From: Bacteroidota bacterium
Lineage (GTDB): Bacteria; Bacteroidota; Bacteroidia; AKYH767-A; OLB10
Length of the DNA stretch: 61,660 nt
Assembly (NCBI GenBank): GCA_031411335.1
Contig: JANOAX010000264.1
Location: forward strand, 1-61,660
Reading direction: 5' to 3'
A model generated the notes under the pieces. It saw only the letters and a program-made list of their open reading frames with translations. It did no database searches and was not told where the DNA came from. The position numbers and the translations under genes were made by a program. Shown here one piece after another: positions 3,876 through 17,821 of this stretch (position 1 is its first letter; each line of letters opens with the position of its first letter).

Positions 3876-4342
3876 TTTACGGGAATTTACAAAATTAAGT
3901 GTTGCTCGTTCTGATTCTCTTAATGGAAAAGTTTTTCGTTTTGGTATTTAGAATTTATGCAAGCTCGTTTTAAAAATATTTAATTAGCTTTCAAACTACA
4001 TACATTTTTTTTACACCCTTATTTCCGATTGGTATTTATTTTCTACTTTTTTATGGGAAAGGGGAAGAGTTGAAGCTGTGATCGCTTAAAATAAGTTTTA
4101 CTTGTGTTCCTGCAGAATTGTTGTTTGTTTGTTTAAAATAGGCAAACCCTATCATCAACACGATTCTACGTTACAGCTATACCAGCTTCAACTACTTTTC
4201 CCCTTTTTATCTTCCAAGTATTTTCCTTCTCCTATGCTGGATCTATCTTCGTACATGTTAGTTATTAGCAAACCTATATCATTAGTGCCATAGTCAACAA
4301 GTACTTTCATTTGAAGTGAAATACTTAAAATTGTGATTTCAA

Positions 4343-5689: not shown

Positions 5690-6682
5690 TCAACTTTTAC
5701 TTGAAGTTTTTGGGTTGTGTTTTTCAAAAAGTTCATATCGCTTATTGGCAGTACTTTCATTTAAGTGCTTTGGGAAACCATTAAGTACTTTTTCATACTC
5801 AACTTTGCCAATAACTTTACAAATATATGATTCATGAACAAAATTTAAGTAAGAAACTATATCAGATAAATACTGGTGGAATCTATTGAAGTTAATATCA
5901 GCATTTATAAATGATTCAATATCGTGATAATTGGCTTTGATTCTTAATCTATATAGCATATTTAATATAGTTGTTTCTGGAATTGTTGTGTATATTAAAT
6001 CCCAATGTGATTTATTGAATGTTTTTCTAAATTTTCCAGAATTGTTAAAAAAACGAGGGTCTTTAGCATTTTCTAGTTTTTCTCTCTTTACTTCTGCATT
6101 CTTTTTTCGAGTTGATTTGAGAAATGAAGCAATTTGATTTTGAGCATCCTCTATACAATTAATACTTGATAAACCATTAAAATTATCTGGAATACCATTA
6201 AATTTTATTAATCTCTTATATTCAAATTCCTCATGTAAACCACTGCAAGAAAAACTAATTGGTAACGGATAATGTTTGTCCTTAACTGAATTGCCGAATA
6301 TTTTGATGGATTTTTCATGTTGATCTGAAGCTATATTTTGTGTTTCATGAAAAGCTGTCATACCCAAATAAACTGTATAATATGCTTGTGGGAAATTCCA
6401 GTGTAATGCGAATTTGTAATAGTCGTCATTATCTACCTCGCCAGTCATTTTAAATGCATATTCAGTACTCCACGAATTCCATAATAACTTCTTTACTAAA
6501 TTTAAATCTAAAGTTCGATTTTTCAACTTTAAACGGTTAAAATAATCATTACTTTTTAAATCAAAACGGTTCTTACTTTGATTGATATGCATAGCGATTG
6601 CAGAAAAATGATTGAAAAAGACTTTAGAAGGAATTGCCTTTTTTGCTTGTTCATCAAACGACTTAATAATTCTTGGTTTCAT
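5690..6682 (-). CDS. Uncharacterised all-alpha protein with a HEPN-like Rx5H motif (YaaC/HEPN-like); last gene of the R-M operon
   Basis: 330 aa. The motif LYRLRIKANYHDIESF (R247..H253, nt about 5924-5944) fits the HEPN Rx4-6H signature. An upstream helix (HWNFPQAYYTVYLGMTAF) is reminiscent of YaaC-like proteins. The gene starts 47 nt downstream of hsdM. The family call is tentative. Confidence 0.45.
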   Translation of the reverse strand: MKPRIIKSFDEQAKKAIPSKVFFNHFSAIAMHINQSKNRFDLKSNDYFNRLKLKNRTLDLNLVKKLLWNSWSTEYAFKMTGEVDNDDYYKFALHWNFPQAYYTVYLGMTAFHETQNIASDQHEKSIKIFGNSVKDKHYPLPISFSCSGLHEEFEYKRLIKFNGIPDNFNGLSSINCIEDAQNQIASFLKSTRKKNAEVKREKLENAKDPRFFNNSGKFRKTFNKSHWDLIYTTIPETTILNMLYRLRIKANYHDIESFINADINFNRFHQYLSDIVSYLNFVHESYICKVIGKVEYEKVLNGFPKHLNESTANKRYELFEKHNPKTSSKS

Positions 6683-6729: not shown

Positions 6730-8220
6730 TCACTTTCCATTTATCGTCAACATTATTTCTCTGAAACTTGCTAAACCCGCTTCTAGGTTTTCAATTATTT
6801 CTCCAGCTAAAACCTCTGGGTCGGGTAGATTGTCAAGGTCTGCTAAAGATTTATCTTTTAACCAAGTGATGTCCAAAGAGGTTTTATCACGACTGGTAAT
6901 TTCGTCAATAGAAAATTTTCTCCATCGACCTTCTGGGGAAGTTGAACCTTTCGAAGCTTCACTCCACGTTTCTTTTCGTTTATGTCGGTTTTGGGGATTG
7001 TAGCAAGTGATAAAATCTCGCATATCTTCCAGCGACAACTGATTTCTTTTAAGAGTGTGATGAATATTAGTCCGGTAGTCATACACCCAGACTTCCTTAG
7101 TCCAGAATTCTCTTCCTGCTGGTTTGTTGTCAAAGAAAATCACATTTGCTTTAACTCCTTGAGCATAAAAAATTCCTGTTGGTAATCGAAGTATGGTATG
7201 AAGGTCTGTAACCTCCAACAATTTCTTACGGACAGTTTCGCCTGCTCCGCCTTCAAACAAAACATTATCGGGAACTACAACGGCTGCAATGCCTGTAGTC
7301 TTTAGCATTGTTCGAATATGCTGAACAAAGTTTAATTGCTTGTTACTAGTAGTTGCCCAAAAGTCTTGCCGATTGTAAGTCAAATCTTCTTTCTCTTGTT
7401 CGCCTTCTTCGTTGGTAAAGGTTTGTGAACTCTTTTTACCGAAAGGTGGATTTGCTAAGATGTAATCATAAGTAGTTGGGGCTGCTGAAATCAACGCATC
7501 AGCAGGAGAGATGAAATTTTCTGAATCAATATCACCGATGTTGTGTAAAAACAAATTCATCAATGCCAACCTTCTTGTACCTGCCACGATTTCGTTTCCA
7601 AAAAAAGTATTGTACTTTAAAAATTGCTTTTGAGATTTATCCAAATCATGTTTCTCTACCAAATAATCATAGGCTGCCAAAAAGAAACCACCTGTGCCAC
7701 ATGCAGGGTCGGCAATGGTTTTCTTTGGTTCGGGTTGCACACACTCCACCATTGCACGAATCAAAGCCCGAGGAGTGAAGTATTGACCTGCGCCACTTTT
7801 CGTGTCTTCTGCGTTTTTCTCCAACAGCCCTTCATATATATCTCCTTTGTCTTTCACGCCCATCATTACCCAATTTTCCTTATCAATCAAGTCAATTAGT
7901 TTTGAAAGTTTAGCGGGGTCTTGAATTTTGTTTTGGCTCTTTGTAAATATTTGCCCTAAGATTCCTTTTTCTTTCCCCAACTCACGTAGTAAATTGATAT
8001 AATGCACTTCTAACTCTGCACCTTTCATTGAAGTTAATGTTTCCCAAACAAATTCTTTAGGAATAGGAAGTTTACGGTTGTGAGGCGGCTTGCTATATTC
8101 ATCAGCCATTTTTAAAAACAGCAAATAAGTAAGCTGTTCTAAATAATCTCCGTAACCAACACCATCATCACGAAGGGTGTTGCAGAAAGACCATACTTTT
8201 TGAACTATTGGACTATTCAT
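6730..8220 (-). CDS. hsdM: Type I restriction-modification system, N6-adenine DNA methyltransferase subunit
   Basis: 496 aa with an HsdM N-terminal domain (FCNTLRDDGVGYGDYLEQLTYLLFLKM), SAM motif I (DPACGTGGF) and catalytic motif IV (NPPFG). Confidence 0.95.
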   Translation of the reverse strand: MNSPIVQKVWSFCNTLRDDGVGYGDYLEQLTYLLFLKMADEYSKPPHNRKLPIPKEFVWETLTSMKGAELEVHYINLLRELGKEKGILGQIFTKSQNKIQDPAKLSKLIDLIDKENWVMMGVKDKGDIYEGLLEKNAEDTKSGAGQYFTPRALIRAMVECVQPEPKKTIADPACGTGGFFLAAYDYLVEKHDLDKSQKQFLKYNTFFGNEIVAGTRRLALMNLFLHNIGDIDSENFISPADALISAAPTTYDYILANPPFGKKSSQTFTNEEGEQEKEDLTYNRQDFWATTSNKQLNFVQHIRTMLKTTGIAAVVVPDNVLFEGGAGETVRKKLLEVTDLHTILRLPTGIFYAQGVKANVIFFDNKPAGREFWTKEVWVYDYRTNIHHTLKRNQLSLEDMRDFITCYNPQNRHKRKETWSEASKGSTSPEGRWRKFSIDEITSRDKTSLDITWLKDKSLADLDNLPDPEVLAGEIIENLEAGLASFREIMLTINGK

Positions 8221-8238
8221 TTTGTGTTTTTTATATTA

Positions 8239-8847
8239 TTACCTGTGTGCCAATGCTGCTTTTAAGTGCTGTTCTGTTTGTTGATCTAAAACCAAATCGT
8301 TTTCTGTTACATATGCGTTTAATTCTATTGCTCTGAACCTTGCCATTTTTGGAGAGTCTAAACCGAACATCTTAATTGATGCAGTTGCTTCTGCGCTGTT
8401 AGATTGAATTACAATTCTCTTTGCATTGTCAACCCATGTGTAGTGTATATCAGGATTATGAAAATACGGATGCACAATTAGGAAATCACAATTACCATAA
8501 ACTACATTTTTTGTTCTGATAGTTTCTTGCTGAAATTTTTTCTTTGGCCCGTTACAAAAATTGCAAGCTAAAACTAAGTTCTGTTCTGTGTATGTAAATT
8601 CAGGATACCTTGCTTGTCCCTTTGCTGCAATGTGTTCAATTTCTCCCGCACTTGTTCCACCTAATTCTAATCCACAATAAGCACAACTTGTTTGAGTAGC
8701 ATCTAACTGTCCTCTTATTTTAATTTTCAAAACTTTTGTTCTTGCAACTGGTTTATCCCATGTTTGTCCCATTGGCGGATTCAAACCCGCAATGTGGTTT
8801 GTATCGGATTGGTCGAAAATAATAGGACAAATTAATTGAACAATCAT
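8239..8847 (-). CDS. ptuB: HNH endonuclease, Septu PtuB-like (TIGR02646-type)
   Basis: 202 aa. The HNH core is CAYCG...EIEHIAAKG...NLVLACNFCNGPKK. Its start overlaps the stop of the upstream AAA ATPase by 4 nt (8844-8847). Confidence 0.75.
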   Translation of the reverse strand: MIVQLICPIIFDQSDTNHIAGLNPPMGQTWDKPVARTKVLKIKIRGQLDATQTSCAYCGLELGGTSAGEIEHIAAKGQARYPEFTYTEQNLVLACNFCNGPKKKFQQETIRTKNVVYGNCDFLIVHPYFHNPDIHYTWVDNAKRIVIQSNSAEATASIKMFGLDSPKMARFRAIELNAYVTENDLVLDQQTEQHLKAALAHR

Positions 8848-10385
8848 AGTGTTGAACGATAGGTTTTGATTTGTTTGATAATTTCAATTGTTGGGTCGGC
8901 TTCACTTAATTTTAATTTATCTAACCTCCCAATAATTTCATCCAACTCAACTGTCTCTGTGTTTTTATTTGTTATTTGCTTTAATGCTTTTCTTAAATCC
9001 ATTTCTAAATAATAGTTTGAAGTAGATTTAACATTAAACACTCGATACAAAACATCTTCGGCTGGCCATCCATAAGTATTTGTCTGCTCAGGAATTTCAA
9101 CAGTCTCTATTTGCTCATCTCGTTTCAGTCCAATAATTTTAGAATTCTCGCCTTTCAAATCTGAAATGAGAAAATGAGAATGCGTTGCAATAATAAAGTG
9201 ACAACCAGTGTATTTCTTAAAGAGTTTATTTATGATTTCAAAGTATTGCATCTGCCAATTCGGATGCATGCTTATTTCTGGTTCGTCAATTAAAATAACA
9301 CTGTTGTCTTTTACTTTGGCTAATAAACCAATCAATGAAGTGAAGATATGGTATTCCCCTGAACTGCTGTCTTCAAAATCATAAACGGTATTTGTTTCTC
9401 CATTAATTACTTGAATGAATGGAAATGAAATCAGGTCTAACCAACCTAATTGTTTTATCATTTCAAATTCTTTCTTGATGTCAAGTTCGCCGAAAATGTG
9501 AAGTTCAAATTTCTTGCTGTTTGGGTGGTCATTACTATATGGAATAATTTTGTAAACCATCATTTGAATATAATTTACAATTGCTTGAAGTAAGTCTTTG
9601 TCGTTCTCAATTTTCCGAAAATGTTTTTCTCCTCTTAGTGGCGTTGTTCTATTCTTCTTTGCATAATCATTAAAAAACTCTTTAAGACCCTCAACCGATA
9701 ATTCTTTGCTGTAAATTTCTTTAAAGTATCTTGGTGTATATCCAATAATAATGTTCCCATTAATGTTTAAGTATTTTAAAATCTGTTCAAGATTTTCAAG
9801 AAAGTTCTTGTCATCTGAAATCTCGACAAGATTTTGTGCCGTAATACGAGCTAAGGTTCTTGTTCCAGCTACTGATGGTGTTCTTCGAACTCCTAAGTAA
9901 TTGTAAATATCAAAACCTTGCTTGGCTGCTATCACTGGAAATTTATCCGTTAACATGATCGAACTTGCTAAAAGTTTTTCGGGCAGTTGAATATCCATTA
10001 ATTCTTTTATTGGCTCCCCATTTTGCTTACAAGTTAACATTGAACCCTTTGTAAAAGCTTTTAGCAGTTTTATATTATCGCTTTTAACAATGTTTCCAAT
10101 CTCATAAACATTTTCATTGTATGAATACTTAATAAAAAAGCTGCCTGTTATGTGAAAGGGCCGCTTGCCTTGAATTTTATAATCAAATATTTCTCTGATA
10201 ATGTCAATAAGAGTTCTAAGTATATAACTTTTGCCTGTTCCGTTGGGCCCAATTAATATTGTAAAATAGTTCCCGTGAAGCTTATCATTATCATTTGTAA
10301 AAGACAAGTTGAGAGTTCCAAGATACCTGTTCTCGTAGGTTTGTAACTCATAAATTTTAAATCCTTTGTTCATAAAAAAATACAT
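8844..10385 (-). CDS. ptuA: ABC/AAA_15-21-type ATPase, Septu PtuA-like
   Basis: 513 aa with Walker A (GPNGTGKS), Walker B (VILIDEPEISMHP) and an H-loop (IATHSHFLISDL). It is paired by overlap with an HNH gene. The likely real start is MNKGFKIYEL at 10373. Confidence 0.75.
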   Translation of the reverse strand: MYFFMNKGFKIYELQTYENRYLGTLNLSFTNDNDKLHGNYFTILIGPNGTGKSYILRTLIDIIREIFDYKIQGKRPFHITGSFFIKYSYNENVYEIGNIVKSDNIKLLKAFTKGSMLTCKQNGEPIKELMDIQLPEKLLASSIMLTDKFPVIAAKQGFDIYNYLGVRRTPSVAGTRTLARITAQNLVEISDDKNFLENLEQILKYLNINGNIIIGYTPRYFKEIYSKELSVEGLKEFFNDYAKKNRTTPLRGEKHFRKIENDKDLLQAIVNYIQMMVYKIIPYSNDHPNSKKFELHIFGELDIKKEFEMIKQLGWLDLISFPFIQVINGETNTVYDFEDSSSGEYHIFTSLIGLLAKVKDNSVILIDEPEISMHPNWQMQYFEIINKLFKKYTGCHFIIATHSHFLISDLKGENSKIIGLKRDEQIETVEIPEQTNTYGWPAEDVLYRVFNVKSTSNYYLEMDLRKALKQITNKNTETVELDEIIGRLDKLKLSEADPTIEIIKQIKTYRSTL

Positions 10386-11612
10386 TTATAGTAACCCCCC
10401 TTCAAACGCTTTCTTCAAAATACTTTGCTTCAACATTTCTGCTTGATGTAGCGCGCTTGTAATTGCTTCTTCGACCTTATCACAAACACACAATCTGCTT
10501 TCAATTTCTCGAACAATCACCTTTTGCTCTTCCATAGGTGCAAATGGAATGATGGATGCTTTAAGTTGGGTTGTATTTATTCTTGGTCTTGTTGCTCCAT
10601 GAATATGATTTACTAGCTGATTTTGCATTGCCTTCGTTGAAAAATAAAATGCCAAATAATTCTTGTTGATTTTTGTTTCTTCAACCCGAACAAGAAAACA
10701 ATCTGCTTTGTTGATTGCTTTGTCAATGTAATCAGGTAGAATAACTGAACGAATTATACCCATAATAAAAGACGAAAAAATAATATCACCCTTGCCTACA
10801 GTATGTCGCTTTAGCGTCTCATATTTTTCATGTGATATGAACGTTTTGTGTTCATTTCTAAATTCCATTTCACCGATATTTTCCAAACGAATTACTCTTA
10901 CACCTTCGTTAACATAATCATTGCTTTTCAGATTAGATCCAAAAGGTCCATCTGATATTCTTTCAACTAATTCTTTTAGTTCAATTTGTTTCCATCTGTT
11001 TGGCAAATCACCGTTTACCTTTTTGTTTGTTAATCTACCTTCAAAGGCCCATTTTAAAACTGATTGCCTGTAAACTTTTAATTGCTGTTGGGCTATTTCA
11101 AGTTGCTGAATTCCATTTTCTAAATCACTTAAAAGTTCTTCGATTTTGGAAATGATTTCTTCTTGTTCTTTCATTGATGGCACAAGCAATTCAAAATTCC
11201 AAAGTAATGTTGGTTCTATGTGTGGAATACCGACACCTTTTGGTTTTGTGTTTAAGATTTGGAATTTGGAACTTATGAAGTGATACAAATATTCTTTATG
11301 AATATTTTCCTTTGGCAAAATTTTCATGAGTGTAGAACCAACTGCCCCTTTCTTTGCTTTACCAATCAACCCACATCTTGCACCATCCCAAACCATCAAC
11401 AAATCTTTGTCCTCACATAAATTACATTTTGCCCCGTTAGTGTATTCAGCAAAAATTCCTTTCTCAAATGCTTTGATGTTGATGTAAGGAATTTTACATT
11501 CTTTATTTACTTTTTCTACTAAAACCTGTGGCTTTTTTCCTTTGGAGTAAGTGCACACTTCCCCTAACTTTTTAAATTGGCTTTGCTTTTGTATTTTACT
11601 TTGTTCAATCAT
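10386..11612 (-). CDS. hsdS: Type I restriction-modification system specificity subunit
   Basis: 408 aa with two target-recognition domains. They are separated and followed by conserved coiled-coil spacers (EQEEIISKIEELLSDLENGIQQLEIAQQQLKVYRQSVLKWAFEG and EEQKVIVREIESRL...QAEMLKQSILKKAFEG). Confidence 0.9.
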   Translation of the reverse strand: MIEQSKIQKQSQFKKLGEVCTYSKGKKPQVLVEKVNKECKIPYINIKAFEKGIFAEYTNGAKCNLCEDKDLLMVWDGARCGLIGKAKKGAVGSTLMKILPKENIHKEYLYHFISSKFQILNTKPKGVGIPHIEPTLLWNFELLVPSMKEQEEIISKIEELLSDLENGIQQLEIAQQQLKVYRQSVLKWAFEGRLTNKKVNGDLPNRWKQIELKELVERISDGPFGSNLKSNDYVNEGVRVIRLENIGEMEFRNEHKTFISHEKYETLKRHTVGKGDIIFSSFIMGIIRSVILPDYIDKAINKADCFLVRVEETKINKNYLAFYFSTKAMQNQLVNHIHGATRPRINTTQLKASIIPFAPMEEQKVIVREIESRLCVCDKVEEAITSALHQAEMLKQSILKKAFEGGLL

Positions 11613-13387
11613 TACTGCAGTGCCGTAAATATTTTTTTAAATTTTATAACTGTTTGGTCACTTAATTCCACTTTTTCTTTTTGAAGAAATAATATTTGTA
11701 TGGCAGTATTGAACTTTGATTTATCATAATTTTGCACTGATTTGTCTAAATATTTTGTGATCTTTAGTCTTTCTGTGTCGTTAAACAGAAATTCGGTTGA
11801 GTAATTGTATGCGGGATCAATGTCTGTATAGGTTGTTATTTTATCTTCAACCACACCATTAAATTCGTCAACATAACGTTGTTTTGCCTTATTGCCTGGA
11901 GGATCACCATCTAGCAAGATTTTAAATTCTCGATTCCAAGCAAGATAGAGTGCAATTACTTGCTTGTTTCTATCTGCTCCTGTTCCCGGATAAAAATTCA
12001 GCGCGAATTCATTCTCTCCAAGTATAACTTCATTGATATATCGAAGGGCATAATAATCATTTTTTCCTTCTGTAATTATAATTTTTGGAACTTCTTCCAA
12101 TAAACCAGGTTGATAGTCCAACGCATCAAGAATAGGTTGAAAATAGGTTCTTTGCTCAGGATTCTGGCTTGCAAATTGTTTGTATGGGATAGCTTCAATA
12201 TCCGTTTTTTCGCTGTCAAAATTTAATTCATCATCATAATCAAGATTTTTATTTCGAATAATAAATGCGCCAGAAAGCCAATCTGGGTTTATTAAATGAT
12301 GACTATGTGTTGTATAAATCAATCTGCTTTTATCAACTAATTTCTCAAAAGTTTTTAGAAGATTTTTTTGAGCAGTGGAATGTAAATTAGAAGCGGGTTC
12401 ATCAAGAAGAAATAAAATTTCTCCTTCATTTTTCGATCGCATTTTTCTAAACTCAGTAAAAAGCAAAAATGTGAAAAACCATTTAAATCCCAAACTTCTT
12501 TCTGCTATCTGATAATGGTTTGAACCCTCCTTTAATCTGACTTCTAAGTAATATCTTTTCTCTGCGCCTTGCTCAATGTCTGGTTTTAAAATAATTTCTT
12601 TTCCTTTTGATTGGAAGAGTGTTTCCCATGCCTGAAAAACAGTTTTAGAAACTTTAGCACTCATTTTATTAATGGTTGACTCCAAAGCTTCCTTTGCATC
12701 ATCCTTCGTACTTTTCATTCGTTCAAGTAAATGTTCCTGGGTATTCAAACCACCACCAATTGAATCTAAAATATCACTGATTACTTCTCTATAAGTTCCC
12801 TGCTCCCCAGTTTCGGAGGCATACTTTTCTAAATATATTCTTGCAGGAAATGAAAATAAAAAGTCTGGATAGTAAATGATTGGTGGGATCAAATTACTCT
12901 CTATAAAATCGGTTATTTTTATCCAATCATCTGAATCCGATTTAATTGACCTTTTCCTCTTGGAATCTTCTTTTATCCCTTTTAACTCCAATTCCCATAT
13001 AGGGTCAGATTCTTCTATTACAAACACAGAATTTTTAAAAACTTTTACTTTCTCAATTTCAATTTTCTTAATCCCTTCCAAAGAATGAATTCCGATTGAT
13101 TTTGCATAATCTCTAATTGCCTTTTCATCCTGTTGGTCGAGCTTCAGAAAGGCTTTTATAGATACTGAGCCGTTGAAGTTTAATTTTTTTTCCTTAGGAA
13201 TTAGTTTGTGACATTCTTCATTGGGAATATCCTTTTTAAATAAAGTTATTGCTTCTAGGATGGAAGTTTTTCCGCTTTCATTAAGACCGACTAGAGTTAA
13301 CACTTTTGACTTTGGTTCTTTTTCCAAGTCAACAGTAAGGTCTTTGATTCCTTTGTAATTTTTAATAATAAACTTCGAATAACGCAT
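11612..13387 (-). CDS. OLD-family ABC ATPase fused to a C-terminal TOPRIM/DUF4435-like nuclease domain (class-1 OLD or fused PARIS AriA-AriB-like)
   Basis: 591 aa. The N-terminus is FIIKNYKGIKDL...VGLNESGKTSILEAI (Walker A). Other ATPase motifs are the signature-like SLGFKWFF, Walker B (LFLLDEPASNLH) and H-loop (YTTHSHHLI). The C-terminus has TOPRIM-type acidic motifs: IIITEGKNDYYALRYI (E440) and KILLDGDPPG (DxD, 493-495). Its stop overlaps the hsdS start by 1 nt. Confidence 0.75.
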   Translation of the reverse strand: MRYSKFIIKNYKGIKDLTVDLEKEPKSKVLTLVGLNESGKTSILEAITLFKKDIPNEECHKLIPKEKKLNFNGSVSIKAFLKLDQQDEKAIRDYAKSIGIHSLEGIKKIEIEKVKVFKNSVFVIEESDPIWELELKGIKEDSKRKRSIKSDSDDWIKITDFIESNLIPPIIYYPDFLFSFPARIYLEKYASETGEQGTYREVISDILDSIGGGLNTQEHLLERMKSTKDDAKEALESTINKMSAKVSKTVFQAWETLFQSKGKEIILKPDIEQGAEKRYYLEVRLKEGSNHYQIAERSLGFKWFFTFLLFTEFRKMRSKNEGEILFLLDEPASNLHSTAQKNLLKTFEKLVDKSRLIYTTHSHHLINPDWLSGAFIIRNKNLDYDDELNFDSEKTDIEAIPYKQFASQNPEQRTYFQPILDALDYQPGLLEEVPKIIITEGKNDYYALRYINEVILGENEFALNFYPGTGADRNKQVIALYLAWNREFKILLDGDPPGNKAKQRYVDEFNGVVEDKITTYTDIDPAYNYSTEFLFNDTERLKITKYLDKSVQNYDKSKFNTAIQILFLQKEKVELSDQTVIKFKKIFTALQ

Positions 13388-13399
13388 TAGTTTTAAGCT

Positions 13400-14044
13400 T
13401 TAAAGTTTAATACGGGTACATAGGTATTTAGAGCTAATAACATCGATCATCAAATAACCATCAAATAAGAATTGGCTGATTATCAATGCTAATTGGCTCC
13501 AGAATCGCATAATTGTCAAATAGCCATCAAATAATATTTTTGGGCTTTCTGTTACATACCTGTTACTTAAGAATTTGATTCTCGCGCGGGTTTTTATCAC
13601 ATGCCAGTCACATAACAAAGTGTTGGTTTTAAAGGGGTTAATTTTTGAAAGCCGGCTTTTAGTCACATACCCATCACATAATAATTTAGTCCAATAAATT
13701 GATTCTTTTACGAATCTATTGTATGCTTTTTGAAAGGAATACAACCCTTCCATCAAATAAACTTCCATTAAAGATTTGTGGCAAAATCGATTCCTTGTTA
13801 CATAGCCGTTACATAAGTTTTTGCCATTCAAAAGGGGTTCTATCACATGCCCATCACATACCAACATGATGATTTTCAATACTAAATTGTTAAAGGGGGG
13901 TCGTTCTATCACATGCCCATCATATAAACGTTGAGGGCAAAAACTCCCTTCAGGATTATCTTTTCCAGTCAAATACCAGTCAAAAGGGATTTTAAACATC
14001 TGCATGTTTTTAAAAATTGGTAGGTAATTGCTTTTCTCTATCAT
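13400..14044 (-). CDS. Basic repeat ORF with about 10 copies of L-[CFY]-[DN]-[GW]-[YH]-[VL]-[TI]; no family recognised and coding status uncertain
   Basis: A 214-aa ORF in an AT-rich stretch. All repeat-to-repeat distances are multiples of 3 (66, 36, 45, 66, 90, 45, 45, 66, 60 nt), so one frame is preserved. Composition is K/R/L/I/F/Y/C-rich and acid-poor. It sits between DUF3800 (76-nt gap) and the OLD-like gene (12-nt gap). Confidence 0.45.
   Translation of the reverse strand: MIEKSNYLPIFKNMQMFKIPFDWYLTGKDNPEGSFCPQRLYDGHVIERPPFNNLVLKIIMLVCDGHVIEPLLNGKNLCNGYVTRNRFCHKSLMEVYLMEGLYSFQKAYNRFVKESIYWTKLLCDGYVTKSRLSKINPFKTNTLLCDWHVIKTRARIKFLSNRYVTESPKILFDGYLTIMRFWSQLALIISQFLFDGYLMIDVISSKYLCTRIKL
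13450..13985 (-). repeat. Array of ten 17-nt units, each a hexamer pair spaced 11 nt start to start
   Basis: Plus-strand units by start position. 13450: tcaaat-aacca-tcaaat. 13516: tcaaat-agcca-tcaaat. 13552: ttacat-acctg-ttactt. 13597: tcacat-gccag-tcacat. 13663: tcacat-accca-tcacat. 13753: tcaaat-aaact-tccatt (degenerate). 13798: ttacat-agccg-ttacat. 13843: tcacat-gccca-tcacat. 13909: tcacat-gccca-tcatat. 13969: tcaaat-accag-tcaaaa. There is a higher-order repeat of about 246 bp (units at 13552/13597/13663 versus 13798/13843/13909). Confidence 0.85.
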
Positions 14045-14120
14045 TTGTTTTTACTTTTGCCTAATAAGTCTGCTAAGCATGAATGTCGGCTCCAAGCCGT
14101 TTTCGGGTGCAAAACCTGAA

Positions 14121-14966
14121 TTAGTGCTTTTGTGGACTTATTTTTTTTGATCCTGTTAAAGGGTTTTTAGGTGAATAATAGTTGCGCCATTCATAAAAAT
14201 TATTGGTATCGTATAAATCCACAACTAAAGAAATTTGCGGCAACAGAAAGTCGTAAAAGCGTGTTTCTCCTTTTTCAAATACGCGCTGAATTGTCCAACA
14301 AAAATAATCGGCTACACACAATAATGGTTCCTGTGTAGGATTTTGAACATTAAAAACAGTGTTGGCATTTATATCGTGCCGGGAAACTTTTTCTCCTGTG
14401 TTTTTTCTTGTGCGTGTTTCAGCTAAGCGTTCCTTCGCTTTTTCTAAAGCCAAAGTAAGGTTATGGTGTTTCGTACTACTGCCTCGCTCAGATACATTTA
14501 AAACCAGTTTGTGTTCTTTCTCAATTTTATTTTTAAGCAAATGCGAAAGTAAATCGGCATAAAAATATTCCTCTCTGCCTTTGTGTTTTGTTTCATAGCG
14601 TTCCAGAGATTTTCTTCCAACCACGGCTTCAAATGAACAGTTTAAGGATTTTATCAGATCGAAAAATAGTTTTCTGGTTTCTGGTAAATCATCCGTTGCA
14701 TGAAAATAAAATCCAGTTGCATTTTTCTTTTTTAATACAGATGGCGCTTGAAAATATGGATCGTTTGCTATTTTTTCTTGCAATACTACTACTTTATCGC
14801 GGACGTCTTCTAGTGGCTCTTTAAACTTCACCATACCAATAATAAAACAGCTGGAAACACCTTGATTGCCTAAAATTGCTTTTTTACCCTTGCCATAAAA
14901 TGAAGTATCACCGGCCTCATCTAAAAAGCGGTGGTTCGATTTTATTTTTTTATTATTCAAGCTCAT
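14121..14966 (-). CDS. DUF3800-family protein
   Basis: 281 aa with the hallmark N-terminal FLDEAGD motif, a mid-protein FHATDD and a C-terminal LLCVADYFCWTIQR segment. Its ATG overlaps the hsdR stop (TAATG, nt 14964-14968). Confidence 0.7.
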   Translation of the reverse strand: MSLNNKKIKSNHRFLDEAGDTSFYGKGKKAILGNQGVSSCFIIGMVKFKEPLEDVRDKVVVLQEKIANDPYFQAPSVLKKKNATGFYFHATDDLPETRKLFFDLIKSLNCSFEAVVGRKSLERYETKHKGREEYFYADLLSHLLKNKIEKEHKLVLNVSERGSSTKHHNLTLALEKAKERLAETRTRKNTGEKVSRHDINANTVFNVQNPTQEPLLCVADYFCWTIQRVFEKGETRFYDFLLPQISLVVDLYDTNNFYEWRNYYSPKNPLTGSKKISPQKH

Positions 14967-17821
14967 TATCCTGCCAATGCTTGGTTTAGTTCTTCGATAA
15001 TAATGTCAGTGTTGTCCCCGAATAATTGCCACATCTTGCTCAAGCCACCTTGTGCGTTGAAGGGGTTTAAATCAAAATCATCTTTCTCAATATTATAAGA
15101 TGTTGCTACATACTCTTTAATCATACGCAACCATTGCATTTGTTCTTCTGTAAAACGGTTGTGTTGCCCTGCGTTCTTTTTTAAAATCCAGTCACGAAAA
15201 TTCTTGTCAACCGTTTTTGAGAAATCATTCAAGGTTGTATCCATACCAGTTACATTCCGCAACAAACTCACTAAAGCAATCAACTCGTTTTTAGGCTGGC
15301 CGGTAACTTTTTCCAACTGTTCGTAGCATCGCCAAATATATATAGGCGCTAGATTGGGTTTGGCGGCAACCAATTTTTGCAACACCTCTTTAATCATCGA
15401 ATAAGTAAGTTCTCGTCTTCGGTATGGTTGTTTGTAAAAAATTTGTAATGCAGTTAACTCATCTTTATTTTCCTGCATCCATTGTTCAAAATCTTTTATA
15501 AGTGCCTCGGCCTTTTGCTTATTGTCTTTGTCCCAACCAACATTTATTACGCTGTCGGGATTTAGTAAATCAATTTTCTGTTCGTGTGCCTTGCGAACAT
15601 TTTCAATGTATTCATTTAACTCACCTGAGAAAACTTTTGCCGCGCTGTTCTGTAACGCTGTAACCAAAGCATTATACTTTTCTTCTTTCTCTGTGTGTGC
15701 AGCACCTACATTTTCGGTTTCAACCTTTGTCCGAATATCTTCAAGCGTATCAGGATTAAAGGCGTTTAACAAATCTTTCACAACTTGCGAAACGGTTTTG
15801 CCTTCAGCTATTTTTTCAAACTTCTGTTTTTCCTTTTCTGTAATTTGTTTGTCAAGACGTGTAAGTCGATTTGCAATCGATGTGAATATTTCTTCTTCTC
15901 GTGCACCGTATGAAATAGCTTGTAATAATTCCTTTAATGGAACACCTGGCTTTTTCTCCAAAGGACGGCTATCTGTTTTCAAACTTTTAGTAACGCCAAT
16001 TGCATCAACAATTACAAAATGGTCTTTCGTGCTTTTTGCTGTAGGTGTAACTTTTTTCAAATCATCCAACAGAATTGTACGTGTGCCTCTGCCTTTCATC
16101 TGCTCAAAATAATTTCTGCTTTTTACATCCCTCATAAAAAGCAAACATTCCAACGGCTTTACATCAGTGCCTGTTGCAATCATATCAACCGTTACTGCTA
16201 TTCTAGGATAATAATCATTTCTGAATTGAGCCAGTACGCTTTTAGCATCATCGGCTTTGTACGTTATTTTTTTGCAGAAACGATTTTCTTCTGCAAATTC
16301 TTTACGTACAGCCTGTATTATATCATCAGCGTGTGAATCGGTTTTGGCGAATATTAAAGTTTTAGGAACTTCAAACTGCCACACAGTATCATTTGGGCCG
16401 TGCTTCATAATTGGAAAAAAGCATTCCTCCTTCTTTAAATCATTATTTAAAAACCATCTTTCTGGAAATAAATTAGGTAGATTTTCTTTAAAAGATCTTA
16501 TGATGGTAGTAATTTGATTGGGGTTCACAATGTCTTTATCCAACTGTTGCGACGTGTACGTTTCATCTTCGTCTTGCAACTCCAATCTTTTCTTTCTACT
16601 CAATCGCTCTCGATGTTCTACATATTCACCTTTCCAAATAGTTGCTCCTTGCTTGGTAATTTTTGTTTCAATAATAAATACATTATAACCTACATTCACT
16701 CCATCTGCAACAGCCATTTCATGTGAATATTCGCTCACCACATTTTGTTCAAAGTATGCAATGGTTCTTGCATCCGGTGTCGCTGTAAGACCCACTTCAA
16801 AAGCATCAAAATAATCTAACACTTGCTTCCACAAATTGTAAATGCTCCGATGGCACTCGTCAATAACAATGAAGTCAAAAAACTCGATCGGAATTTTTTC
16901 ACTGTATGCAATTGGAGGCACTTCTTTAGGTTGCCACTTTCTTTCATTAGGGTTTTCTTCTTCAGCACTTTCTTCTAACTCTGTTCCTTTAAGAATTGAA
17001 TACAGTCGCTGAATAGTGCTGATGCAAACTTGACTATCACTGGCAACAAAACTTGAACGCAACCTTTGAACATTGTAAAGCTCTGTGAACTTTCGGTTGT
17101 CGTCAACGGGAATATAATTGAGAAATTCTTGTTCTGCTTGTTCGCCTAAGTTTTTAGTATCAACCAAAAACAAAATGCGTTTTGCTTTTGAGAACTTTAG
17201 CAAGCGATAAATAGAGGTTATTGCAGTAAAGGTTTTTCCTGCACCTGTTGCCATTTGTATTAATGCTTTTGGTCGATTCGCTTTGAAAGAAATTTCCAAA
17301 TTGTTGATCGCCGAAATTTGACAATCTCTCAAACCGTTAATAGCTAATACGGGCAAGTCGGCCAATCTTCCTCTTAAAGAGACAGCTTGTTCCTTATCCT
17401 TACTAATCCTCAGCCACTCTCGAAAAGTTTCGGGTCTATGGAATGAAAACACTTCTCTTGACCTTGGTTTGGGGTCATGGTAATCGGTGAAACGCGTTAC
17501 TGTGCCTGTGCTTTCATACACAAAAGGTAAAGGCTTATTATCAAGGTGTTTGAGCTTTGCTTTTGAATAATCTTCACTTTGATTTTCGTGAAACGTTAAG
17601 CGATGGCCTTCTTCTTCCCGTTTAGCTTCAATGATTCCACATGGTTTACCATCTACGAACAAAACATAATCCGCGGGCCCAATATCGGTTTGAAATTCTC
17701 TAACGGCAACTCCAATGTTGGCTTGCAAGTTAATTCTTGCCTTATCCTGAATAGCCCAACCACTACGTTGCAAAGCAACGTCTATTTGGTCTCTTGCTAT
17801 TTGTTCAGGGTTCTGGTTCAT
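14966..17821 (-). CDS. hsdR: Type I restriction enzyme, restriction (helicase/endonuclease) subunit
   Basis: 951 aa. The N-terminal nuclease region reads DYVLFVDGKPCGIIEAKRE (PD-(D/E)xK-like). SF2 motif I is QMATGAGKTF and motif II is VIDECHRS. The long helical C-terminal domain is typical of the EcoEI-R-like C-terminus. Confidence 0.95.
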   Translation of the reverse strand: MNQNPEQIARDQIDVALQRSGWAIQDKARINLQANIGVAVREFQTDIGPADYVLFVDGKPCGIIEAKREEEGHRLTFHENQSEDYSKAKLKHLDNKPLPFVYESTGTVTRFTDYHDPKPRSREVFSFHRPETFREWLRISKDKEQAVSLRGRLADLPVLAINGLRDCQISAINNLEISFKANRPKALIQMATGAGKTFTAITSIYRLLKFSKAKRILFLVDTKNLGEQAEQEFLNYIPVDDNRKFTELYNVQRLRSSFVASDSQVCISTIQRLYSILKGTELEESAEEENPNERKWQPKEVPPIAYSEKIPIEFFDFIVIDECHRSIYNLWKQVLDYFDAFEVGLTATPDARTIAYFEQNVVSEYSHEMAVADGVNVGYNVFIIETKITKQGATIWKGEYVEHRERLSRKKRLELQDEDETYTSQQLDKDIVNPNQITTIIRSFKENLPNLFPERWFLNNDLKKEECFFPIMKHGPNDTVWQFEVPKTLIFAKTDSHADDIIQAVRKEFAEENRFCKKITYKADDAKSVLAQFRNDYYPRIAVTVDMIATGTDVKPLECLLFMRDVKSRNYFEQMKGRGTRTILLDDLKKVTPTAKSTKDHFVIVDAIGVTKSLKTDSRPLEKKPGVPLKELLQAISYGAREEEIFTSIANRLTRLDKQITEKEKQKFEKIAEGKTVSQVVKDLLNAFNPDTLEDIRTKVETENVGAAHTEKEEKYNALVTALQNSAAKVFSGELNEYIENVRKAHEQKIDLLNPDSVINVGWDKDNKQKAEALIKDFEQWMQENKDELTALQIFYKQPYRRRELTYSMIKEVLQKLVAAKPNLAPIYIWRCYEQLEKVTGQPKNELIALVSLLRNVTGMDTTLNDFSKTVDKNFRDWILKKNAGQHNRFTEEQMQWLRMIKEYVATSYNIEKDDFDLNPFNAQGGLSKMWQLFGDNTDIIIEELNQALAG

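Follow-up and report, generated by a model that had tools for sequence, protein, structure and literature searches.

A type I restriction-modification (R-M) operon on contig JANOAX010000264.1 of a Bacteroidota bacterium (61,660 nt, analysed at its full length and called the window hereafter) contains an open reading frame (ORF) between a gene for a DUF3800 protein (14121-14966) and one for an OLD-like ATPase (11612-13387). This ORF occupies positions 13400 to 14044 of the reverse strand (645 nt, 214 codons, ATG start) and runs over ten copies of a short repeated unit. In our judgement the segment is probably a non-coding array of predicted binding sites, of three specificities, for Schlafen-like proteins with SLFN_AlbA_2 and HATPase_c_4 domains, and the ORF a by-product of it. 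The units belong to a family of repeats encountered in many other loci, they are associated there with genes for such proteins, and their half-sites are correlated with residues of a C-terminal helix of the adjacent protein. We infer from this that the proteins bind the units physically, at the level of DNA rather than RNA, and with a regulatory outcome.

Units, classes and modules of the repeat family

The unit is composed of two TATKTRA heptamers in tandem, 11 nt apart, and three classes are distinguished by their half-sites: A (TTTGA), B (TGTGA) and C (TGTAA). The composite array of the window extends over 13450..13986 and reads, in coding-strand order with start-to-start distances in nucleotides, A-60-B-66-B-45-C-45-a-90-B-66-B-45-C-36-A-66-A; all coordinates below refer to the same reverse strand. 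Unit 1 (13969..13986; class A, TTTGAC..TATTTGAC) is preceded by TTTAAAATC, which resembles the 'stop codon + AATC' junction usually seen after SLFN_AlbA_2 genes elsewhere. Unit 2 (13909..13926; class B with a degenerate first half, ATATGA / ATGTGA) and unit 3 (13843..13860; class B, TGTGA/TGTGA) form a 66-nt module whose spacer carries TTGAAAATCA at 13870..13879, the counterpart of the yTGAWWATCAa motif of other modules. They are followed by unit 4 (13798..13815; class C, TGTAA/TGTAA), by unit 5 (13753..13770; degenerate class A, AATGGA / ATTTGA) and by a second 66-nt module made of the class B units 6 (13663..13680) and 7 (13597..13614). Unit 8 (13552..13569) is of class C with a degenerate first half (AAGTAA / ATGTAA), and the array ends on a 66-nt module of the class A units 9 (13516..13533) and 10 (13450..13467), with the spacer motif TTGATAATCA at 13477..13486.

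An earlier note, made from the letters of this DNA alone, had described about ten unit copies at distances that are all multiples of 3, together with a 246-nt super-repeat, and this description is confirmed on the window sequence: each of the nine distances given above is divisible by 3, and 13550-13633 matches 13796-13879 at 73% over 84 nt. The strict pattern TKTRAYNNNYATKTRA occurs seven times in the 61.6-kb window, always within the ORF, where 0.59 matches are expected and none of 100 shuffles reaches seven. Each unit closes two forward frames and leaves one open, as had also been noticed. The statement that both hexamers of a unit always belong to the same class stands insofar as no unit of the window combines two classes; 'always' is slightly overstated, since the first hexamer is degenerate in three units (ATATGA, AATGGA, AAGTAA), the other seven being clean (A, B, C, B, B, A, A).

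Outside the window, metagenome contigs were scanned for two A units 42-50 nt apart; this yielded 105 stretches, reduced to 88 distinct modules once duplicates and plain minisatellites had been removed. The start-to-start spacing of these modules is 66 nt in 50 of the 88, 65 nt in 34 and 64 or 67 nt in the other four, and their otherwise variable 44-45-nt spacer has two constant elements, which, counted from the second unit, are TAAA at about -25 and yTGAWWATCAa between about -18 and -8. The co-variation of the two hexamers extends across related loci, as the earlier note had proposed to verify: among 322 distinct units, in which class A is over-represented owing to the way the loci were collected, 247 are concordant (TTTGA/TTTGA 229, TGTGA/TGTGA 10, TGTAA/TGTAA 8) and five are mixed. 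The units of the window match those that flank SLFN_AlbA_2 genes in having TATKTRA twice at 11 nt, like units 66 nt apart and a TGAWWATCA spacer. Across the family, half-sites lie 11 nt apart and like units 66, 87-89 or 97-99 nt apart, that is, near 6, 8 or 9 times 11; one further composite array (locus L391) is ordered A-33-B-66-B-33-A. The spacer consensus WATCARNNNNTTY resembles the consensus of Escherichia coli integration host factor (IHF), which may serve as a lead.

This family of repeat elements appears to be undescribed, and no account of these repeats was found in the literature on AlbA_2/HATPase_c_4 proteins, on COG2865 or on type I R-M systems with Schlafen domains. Several known classes of element were considered for the array and set aside. 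A CRISPR array is incompatible with three repeat classes, variable spacing and mutually related spacers, and Tandem Repeats Finder reports a single 11-nt pair only. The RNA repeats of type III toxin-antitoxin systems (ToxI-like) were dismissed on account of the 36-90-nt spacing and the differing spacers; moreover, the downstream gene encodes an OLD-like ATPase and no ToxN-like match was obtained with PADLOC or Pfam. A scan for sigma-70 promoters remained at chance level, and inspection by eye of unit and module found no -33/-7 arrangement of the Bacteroidetes type (TTG / TAnnTTTG).

Units also occur in other surroundings. No meaningful match to the module or the ORF was obtained in a plasmid collection. 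Phage contigs commonly contain single A-type units (118 stretches), mostly in other contexts, and scans of these contigs for B and C units were dominated by chance matches. In phage-like contigs from IMG/VR (loci L041-L158, e.g. L079, L086, L111, L052 and L075), where single A-type units are frequent, 25 of 90 distinct contexts show the reverse complement ATCAAATAACCATCAAATAA upstream of an ORF with ATG start and a length of at least 60 amino acids (aa), at a distance of 1-13 nt; the forward orientation is found in only 11 contexts, at scattered distances. These phage sites might act as operators where phage genes begin, might serve translation initiation, or might reflect base composition; an antisense action on phages, considered on account of them, was set aside. 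In three loci (L193 at 4109-4195, L201 and L162), an A-type module (GGGTATTTGA variant) follows a dense cluster of 7-9 tRNA genes, 3 nt from the last of them, the carrier being probably a phage or mobile element. Finally, pure 11-nt minisatellites (TTATTTGATGG or GTAACGGCTTT, repeated 7-15 times) are present in unrelated contigs (L175, L206, L266, L159); minisatellites matching the same patterns were treated as noise.

Association with Schlafen-like genes and the half-site correlation

In at least 35 loci, the module starts 2-4 nt past the stop codon of a gene encoding a protein of ~481 aa with SLFN_AlbA_2 and HATPase_c_4 domains, whose C-terminal end reads ...SRKYASY[IV]PFWA. The next gene usually begins 11-22 nt past the module with MNEAETRAE and corresponds to hsdR. 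In other loci the module abuts the start codon of the SLFN_AlbA_2 gene, or modules are found on both its sides. Where the flanks extend over at least 1.6 kb on either side (38 loci), this gene is adjacent to the module in 21 cases. Among the loci examined, composite A/B/C arrays are found only in type I R-M operons, in one of two orders, either hsdM - hsdS - (small inserted genes) - SLFN_AlbA_2 - ARRAY - hsdR or hsdR - ... - SLFN_AlbA_2 - ARRAY - hsdS - ... - hsdM. Most loci with a named source belong to the Bacteroidota, and a high-G+C locus (L397) shares the layout hsdS - gene - module. The partner family, presumably COG2865, is very large, with 7,988 of 8,000 scored candidates of a dedicated search at E <= 1e-20, and is inconsistently named in its sources (RecG helicase, 'predicted HTH transcriptional regulator', 'RNA-binding domain-containing protein'). 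In several of these operons (L391-L396, L407, L412), small PDDEXK_3 genes of 126-143 aa, each followed by an ORF of ~54 aa, are inserted at hsd junctions, sometimes twice in one operon and in L412 together with a 23S_rRNA_IVP gene; these would seem to be a further type of intervening element of such operons.

The association extends to more distant members of the family. Homologues at 41-50% identity from viral-contig collections, including one in a high-G+C hsdS - X - hsdR locus, share a layout in which the stop codon is followed by a tandem 10-11-nt direct repeat, which appears again after 87-99 nt. The repeats themselves are lineage-specific: TTGCTTGATCG, TTGCTTGMTGG, TTTTGATCCGG, TAAGTTGCAG, TTCATGTCA and TTATGTAATT.

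The AlphaFold model of the partner protein has a confident N-terminal domain that matches the N-domains of Schlafen 13/14/5 and the uncharacterised structure 3lmm, followed by a middle part matching GHKL ATPase domains. Three helices are predicted at the C-terminus (408-422, 431-437 and 445-457). The residues that track the repeat open the third of these, the place at which a helix-turn-helix (HTH) reads the bases. The segment concerned reads ...[KQRH]-N-x-x-x-x-S-R-I-I..., and its positions 2-3 vary with the adjacent units: N-[A/S]-[A/S] accompanies TTTGA modules in 21 of 21 distinct loci, N-Y-S accompanies TGTGA in three of three and [N/Q]-Y-P accompanies TGTAA in four of four. The distant homologue with TTATGTAATT has Q-Y-P and the one with TTCATGTCA has N-Y-T. 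Since N-Y is found in 41 of 120 proteins at least 78% identical to an A-type protein, the helix type is not just a marker of deep clades.

A prediction was fixed before the corresponding loci were fetched, using three proteins at least 79% identical to an A-type protein: P0221 (N-Y-S) should be accompanied by TGTGA, and P0164 and P0232 (both N-Y-P) by TGTAA. It held on all three, with one deviating half-site out of 12. P0221 is directly followed by TTATGTGACGGTTATGTGAT and, 66 nt on, by TTATGTGATGGTTATGTGAT; P0164 is directly followed by TTATGTAATGGTTATGTAAC and, 66 nt on, by TTATGTAATGGTTATGTAAT; P0232 has TGTAA at three of its four half-sites.

On the reading that we favour, a unit would be made of two identical 11-bp tandem half-sites bound head-to-tail by two subunits of one ~481-aa protein possessing an SLFN_AlbA_2 domain, a GHKL-type HATPase_c_4 domain and a C-terminal helical DNA-binding region. 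The half-site would be set by the residues that open the presumed recognition helix (N-A-A for TTTGA, N-Y-S for TGTGA, N-Y-P for TGTAA), and the three classes would represent three specificities of one protein family. A homodimer would require two half-sites of its own kind, and the hexamers of a unit would agree for this reason in spite of their different codon phases. In the elementary module, a TGAWWATCA motif would separate two like units at a distance of 65-66 bp; as the module normally follows the gene of its protein directly and is itself followed by hsdR or hsdS, it would be placed to gate the next gene. The spacing of about 6, 8 or 9 times 11 bp and the conserved motif suggest an operator-like nucleoprotein complex with this gating role. 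The array of the window might be served in trans by paralogues encoded elsewhere in the genome, or else be a relic of cassette exchange. A wider proposal, which we hold to be possible but doubtful, is that Schlafen-like ATPases, a large and unstudied family with a two-residue/two-base code, gate hsdR or hsdS through 66-bp modules and constitute a third kind of R-M controller besides C-proteins and RptR, composite arrays serving to integrate the input of paralogues and to exchange cassettes (DUF3800, OLD-like, Septu).

The earlier note had left three possibilities for the segment: a repeat protein, a set of sites for protein binding whose tandem half-sites are separated by about one helical turn, and an RNA that is processed or serves as a decoy. 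The second of these gives the best fit. Its suggestion that the matched hexamers reflect selection on the nucleic acid rather than on the peptide is likewise supported, the ORF being in all likelihood non-coding and the half-sites tracking residues of the partner helix. Its proposal to assay the neighbouring DUF3800 and OLD-like proteins as binders is probably misdirected: arrays were found upstream of none of the OLD-like homologues at 34 loci (27-67% identity), hence the array is not a partner of the OLD-like gene, and the protein that co-varies with the units is the SLFN_AlbA_2/HATPase_c_4 protein, which is absent from the window.

A number of observations weigh against the interpretation as binding sites for Schlafen-like proteins. 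The SLFN_AlbA_2 gene was not found in the 61-kb window by tblastn or with a family hidden Markov model (HMM), so that the array has no partner in cis; another array (L390) also lacks the gene, and comparison of the region upstream of unit 1 with the 3' ends of SLFN_AlbA_2 genes gave a best nucleotide alignment at p ~0.09, which is not significant. The C-terminal helices of the partner are modelled at low confidence, with a predicted local distance difference test (pLDDT) score of 25-45, and Pfam HTH models gave no match to its last 90 aa. On the side of the correlation, the A-type loci were gathered with an A-type DNA pattern, and the N-Y cases number only seven and may share ancestry. Unit spacings of 36, 45 and 60 do not fit a period of 11. 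The array is co-directional with the operon in nearly all loci, which would fit binding to RNA as well, and so would the name 'RNA-binding domain-containing protein' given to the family in some sources. Lastly, the ORF is fully open over 645 nt at 34% G+C, for which the chance in random sequence is ~5e-6; an open frame is more frequent in the composite arrays of R-M operons than in single modules, and inheritance of an open 246-nt super-repeat accounts for the open frame only in part.

Coding, RNA and recombination readings of the array

The open frame (13400..14044) raises the alternative that the ORF is translated, either into a fast-evolving basic repeat protein or as a 'bridging' ORF whose peptide is irrelevant and which lets ribosomes cover 650 nt, thereby preventing polarity. 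The length of the open frame in a DNA of this composition, the nine spacings out of nine that are multiples of 3 and a stop codon located 12 nt ahead of the next start codon all argue for translation, as does the fact that in L036, L390, L391 and L394 the array ORF runs into both of its flanking genes, overlapping the preceding one at its end and the following one at its start. The product would indeed be basic and rich in Cys and aromatic residues, as the earlier note had it (isoelectric point 9.4, 7 Cys, 31 aromatic residues), and it belongs to no recognised protein family: profile searches against Pfam, PADLOC and NCBIfam returned no match, the sole PDB sequence match was one chain at E = 0.026, and AlphaFold gave no confident fold (mean pLDDT of 34 for the 214 aa, which is weak evidence as a single sequence was used).

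The coding signature expected of a gene is nevertheless lacking. The G+C content by codon position is 0.33/0.31/0.37 in the ORF versus 0.47/0.32/0.34 in 12 genes of the window. Homologous modules of different arrays show changes by codon position of 0.35/0.47/0.47 and 0.29/0.31/0.39, without excess at third positions, and instead of a peptide repeat kept while synonymous sites vary, it is the nucleotide units that are conserved exactly, at a spacing of 65 or 66 nt. Many modules have the 65-nt spacing, and the motif frame is closed in the majority of single modules: among 66-nt modules, 16 of 50 are open in that frame versus 12 of 50 in another one. One related array (L039) is in pieces, its frame being broken by a stop codon and by frame shifts (spacings of 35 and 100 nt). 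Across modules there is no general selection for an ORF. In a word-indexed search of 5.8 billion proteins, the product matched only one fragment, 97% identical; a full HMMER scan added 13 short proteins made of the same three motifs (FDGYL, CDG[HY]V and CNGYV), and a profile search retrieved 192 unnamed 'proteins' of 44-181 aa in tiny clusters. These 192 'homologues' look like short ORF calls, that is, the output of gene callers over DNA repeats. The open frame is in part automatic, because two of the frames are closed by the unit, which leaves the third open, and because the growth of the array took place by in-frame duplication; the common spacings of 66, 45, 36 and 33, all multiples of 3, are part of the same explanation. 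The novel repeat protein envisaged earlier does not survive these comparisons, and translation of the ORF in either form appears very unlikely to us; the 214-codon segment is most likely not a gene and its long open frame an incidental by-product of the array.

If not as peptide, the units could operate as RNA, that is, as sites in the polycistronic mRNA for a Schlafen-like or other RNA-binding factor. Through them, the downstream hsd gene would be controlled at the stage of processing, termination or translation; alternatively, they would be the decoy or antitoxin RNA of a Schlafen-type nuclease. Arrays lie on the strand of the flanking genes in ~85-90% of loci, many spacers hold a small hairpin followed by a T-run, and the N-terminal domain of the partner resembles those of Schlafen 13/14/5, the family being named in part after RNA binding, as mentioned above. 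In L261 (9230-9265), a -7 box of the Bacteroidetes type (TACCTTTG) lies ~30 nt upstream of the first unit, which places that array in the 5' untranslated region, between the promoter box and the start codon of the SLFN_AlbA_2 gene. The RNA itself offers little to recognise: RNAalifold on 35 modules gave trivial pairing only, with neither consensus structure nor compensatory pairs, and spacers fold only marginally better than shuffles (mean z of the minimum free energy -0.41), so that a terminator or attenuator hairpin was dropped as a general feature of the module. No Rfam match was obtained for the region at a permissive E-value, for the whole window or for 15 related loci, the chance matches having E >= 1.7. 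Phasing at 11 and 66 nt has no obvious meaning for RNA, and duplex DNA is suggested by the helix-turn-helix-like character of the region that contains the residues correlated with the half-site. An RNA-level element is therefore unlikely in our estimation, and the processed or decoy RNA suggested by the earlier note finds no positive support.

Binding of the units as DNA by Schlafen-like proteins must also be weighed against a role in exchange, in which units would be attachment (att)-like or homology sites for swaps of defence cassettes in type I R-M operons and arrays the scars of such exchanges. The array of the window marks a recombination breakpoint relative to a near-identical metagenome contig (L267): the two are identical over 549 nt, then differ by seven substitutions in 80 nt, and the homology is lost inside unit 9, the downstream DNA being different. 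Similarly, L261 has an array - SLFN_AlbA_2 gene - array arrangement where L229, 95-97% identical, has a single array and no gene. Arrays without the gene, as in L390 and the window, and the retention in L391 of the last ~40 nt of a 481-aa-type gene with its array behind a different, 552-aa gene can be understood in the same way. This 552-aa SLFN_AlbA_2 variant has a different C-terminus and is followed by its own tandem repeat (CTCAATAGAA twice; L391 6988-7060), which suggests that a gene was replaced upstream of a retained array. Arrays are thus places of hsd operon rearrangement, be it as a function or as a by-product of repeat conservation. Ordinary homologous recombination between conserved 20-90-nt repeats explains the breakpoints equally well, no recombinase is linked to arrays in the loci examined, and tandem direct half-sites are unlike the layout of known core recombination sites. 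Whatever occurs at the junctions, the code between helix and half-site demands a protein that reads sequence, and we regard exchange as the purpose of the units as quite improbable.

Host operon, significance and relation to known systems

The operon that hosts the array spans 6730..17821 on the reverse strand, shared by all neighbours of the ORF, and is a type I R-M operon with embedded defence genes. Its genes are, in order, hsdR (14966-17821), the DUF3800 gene (14121..14966), which occupies the slot of the SLFN_AlbA_2 gene of related operons, the array, the gene for the OLD-like ABC-ATPase (11612..13387), which starts 12 nt past the ORF stop and whose homologues elsewhere have no array, hsdS (10386-11612), ptuA (8844-10385), ptuB (8239-8847) and hsdM (6730-8220). 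Three extra defence modules are thereby accommodated within one hsd operon. A complete Septu pair (PtuA and PtuB, 8239-10385) lies between hsdS and hsdM. The OLD-like ATPase, standing alone between array and hsdS, has AriA, Old and a retron-type ATPase-Toprim as best PADLOC models, and no Pfam match to a Toprim domain was found in it. The best PADLOC model of the DUF3800 protein is DUF3800_VII, built for effectors of type VII retrons. A retron non-coding RNA was considered for the array as both neighbours match retron-effector models; it was rejected since no reverse-transcriptase domain is encoded by the ten ORFs neighbouring the array, inverted repeats reach 12-15 nt only and Rfam gave no match. 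Directly downstream of hsdM lies a 330-aa ORF (5690-6682, reverse strand) without Pfam match, and the window has no tRNA or tmRNA genes.

The consequences are of several kinds. Public databases list at least 192 'hypothetical proteins' that are apparently translated copies of this repeat and ought not to be regarded as genes. A very large protein family gains a testable handle in the form of a candidate binding site and an apparent two-residue/two-base code. Type I R-M systems are thought to be regulated mainly post-translationally; a DNA-binding protein with operator modules just before hsdR or hsdS would add a transcriptional layer and may account for the way in which hsd operons take up and exchange additional defence genes. 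The array of the window being orphaned, its local importance may be small.

Among known systems, the prr locus of E. coli places the anticodon nuclease PrrC between hsdS and hsdR, and eukaryotic Schlafens cleave tRNA. The partner gene described here occupies the same slot (hsdM - hsdS - X - hsdR), and its product has an N-terminal domain of the Schlafen fold. This likeness concerns the partner gene absent from the window, not the array, and PrrC is not known to have a cognate repeat element. The C-proteins of type II R-M systems are short Xre-type HTH proteins that act on palindromic operators (C-boxes) upstream of their own gene. As in their case, a small operator linked in cis could determine when, or in what amount, the restriction subunit is made in relation to the methylase; C-proteins have no Schlafen or ATPase domains, however, and their sites are neither tandem direct half-sites nor multi-class arrays.

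Winged-helix regulators of the OmpR/PhoB type read tandem direct repeats with an 11-bp period, such as the pho box, and two identical half-sites one helical turn apart would likewise be read head-to-tail by two subunits here. With such a geometry, a unit would necessarily have two half-sites of the same kind. The partner protein has no receiver domain and no homology to these regulators; the resemblance would lie in a possible mode of working, not in membership. Plasmid iterons and the ParR/parC system are phased arrays of direct repeats bound cooperatively by an adjacently encoded cognate protein, and their incompatibility-like specificity classes, which co-evolve with the protein, offer a parallel to the three classes of units. 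The arrays considered here differ in being chromosomal and within an operon, without Rep or Par protein.

The closest precedent that we found is RptR, a small homodimeric repressor of defence islands embedded in type I R-M systems, which reads the 6-bp palindrome TAGCTA, present as three repeats in the island promoter, and is reported across Gammaproteobacteria (Zhang et al., Nucleic Acids Res 2025; PMC12255303). An operator of the RptR type was rejected for the window itself: the array contains no TAGCTA, its units are tandem TATKTRA half-sites and the operon has no small regulator gene. The differences extend to the nature of the candidate partner, a ~481-aa Schlafen-like/GHKL protein, and to its presumed sites, which are tandem 11-bp direct half-sites of the TATKTRA type in 66-bp modules after the gene, with three or more specificities. 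What both would have in common is a DNA-binding regulator tied to type I R-M operons with embedded defence genes, a series of direct repeats beside the genes under control, and the joint conservation of protein and site across genomes.

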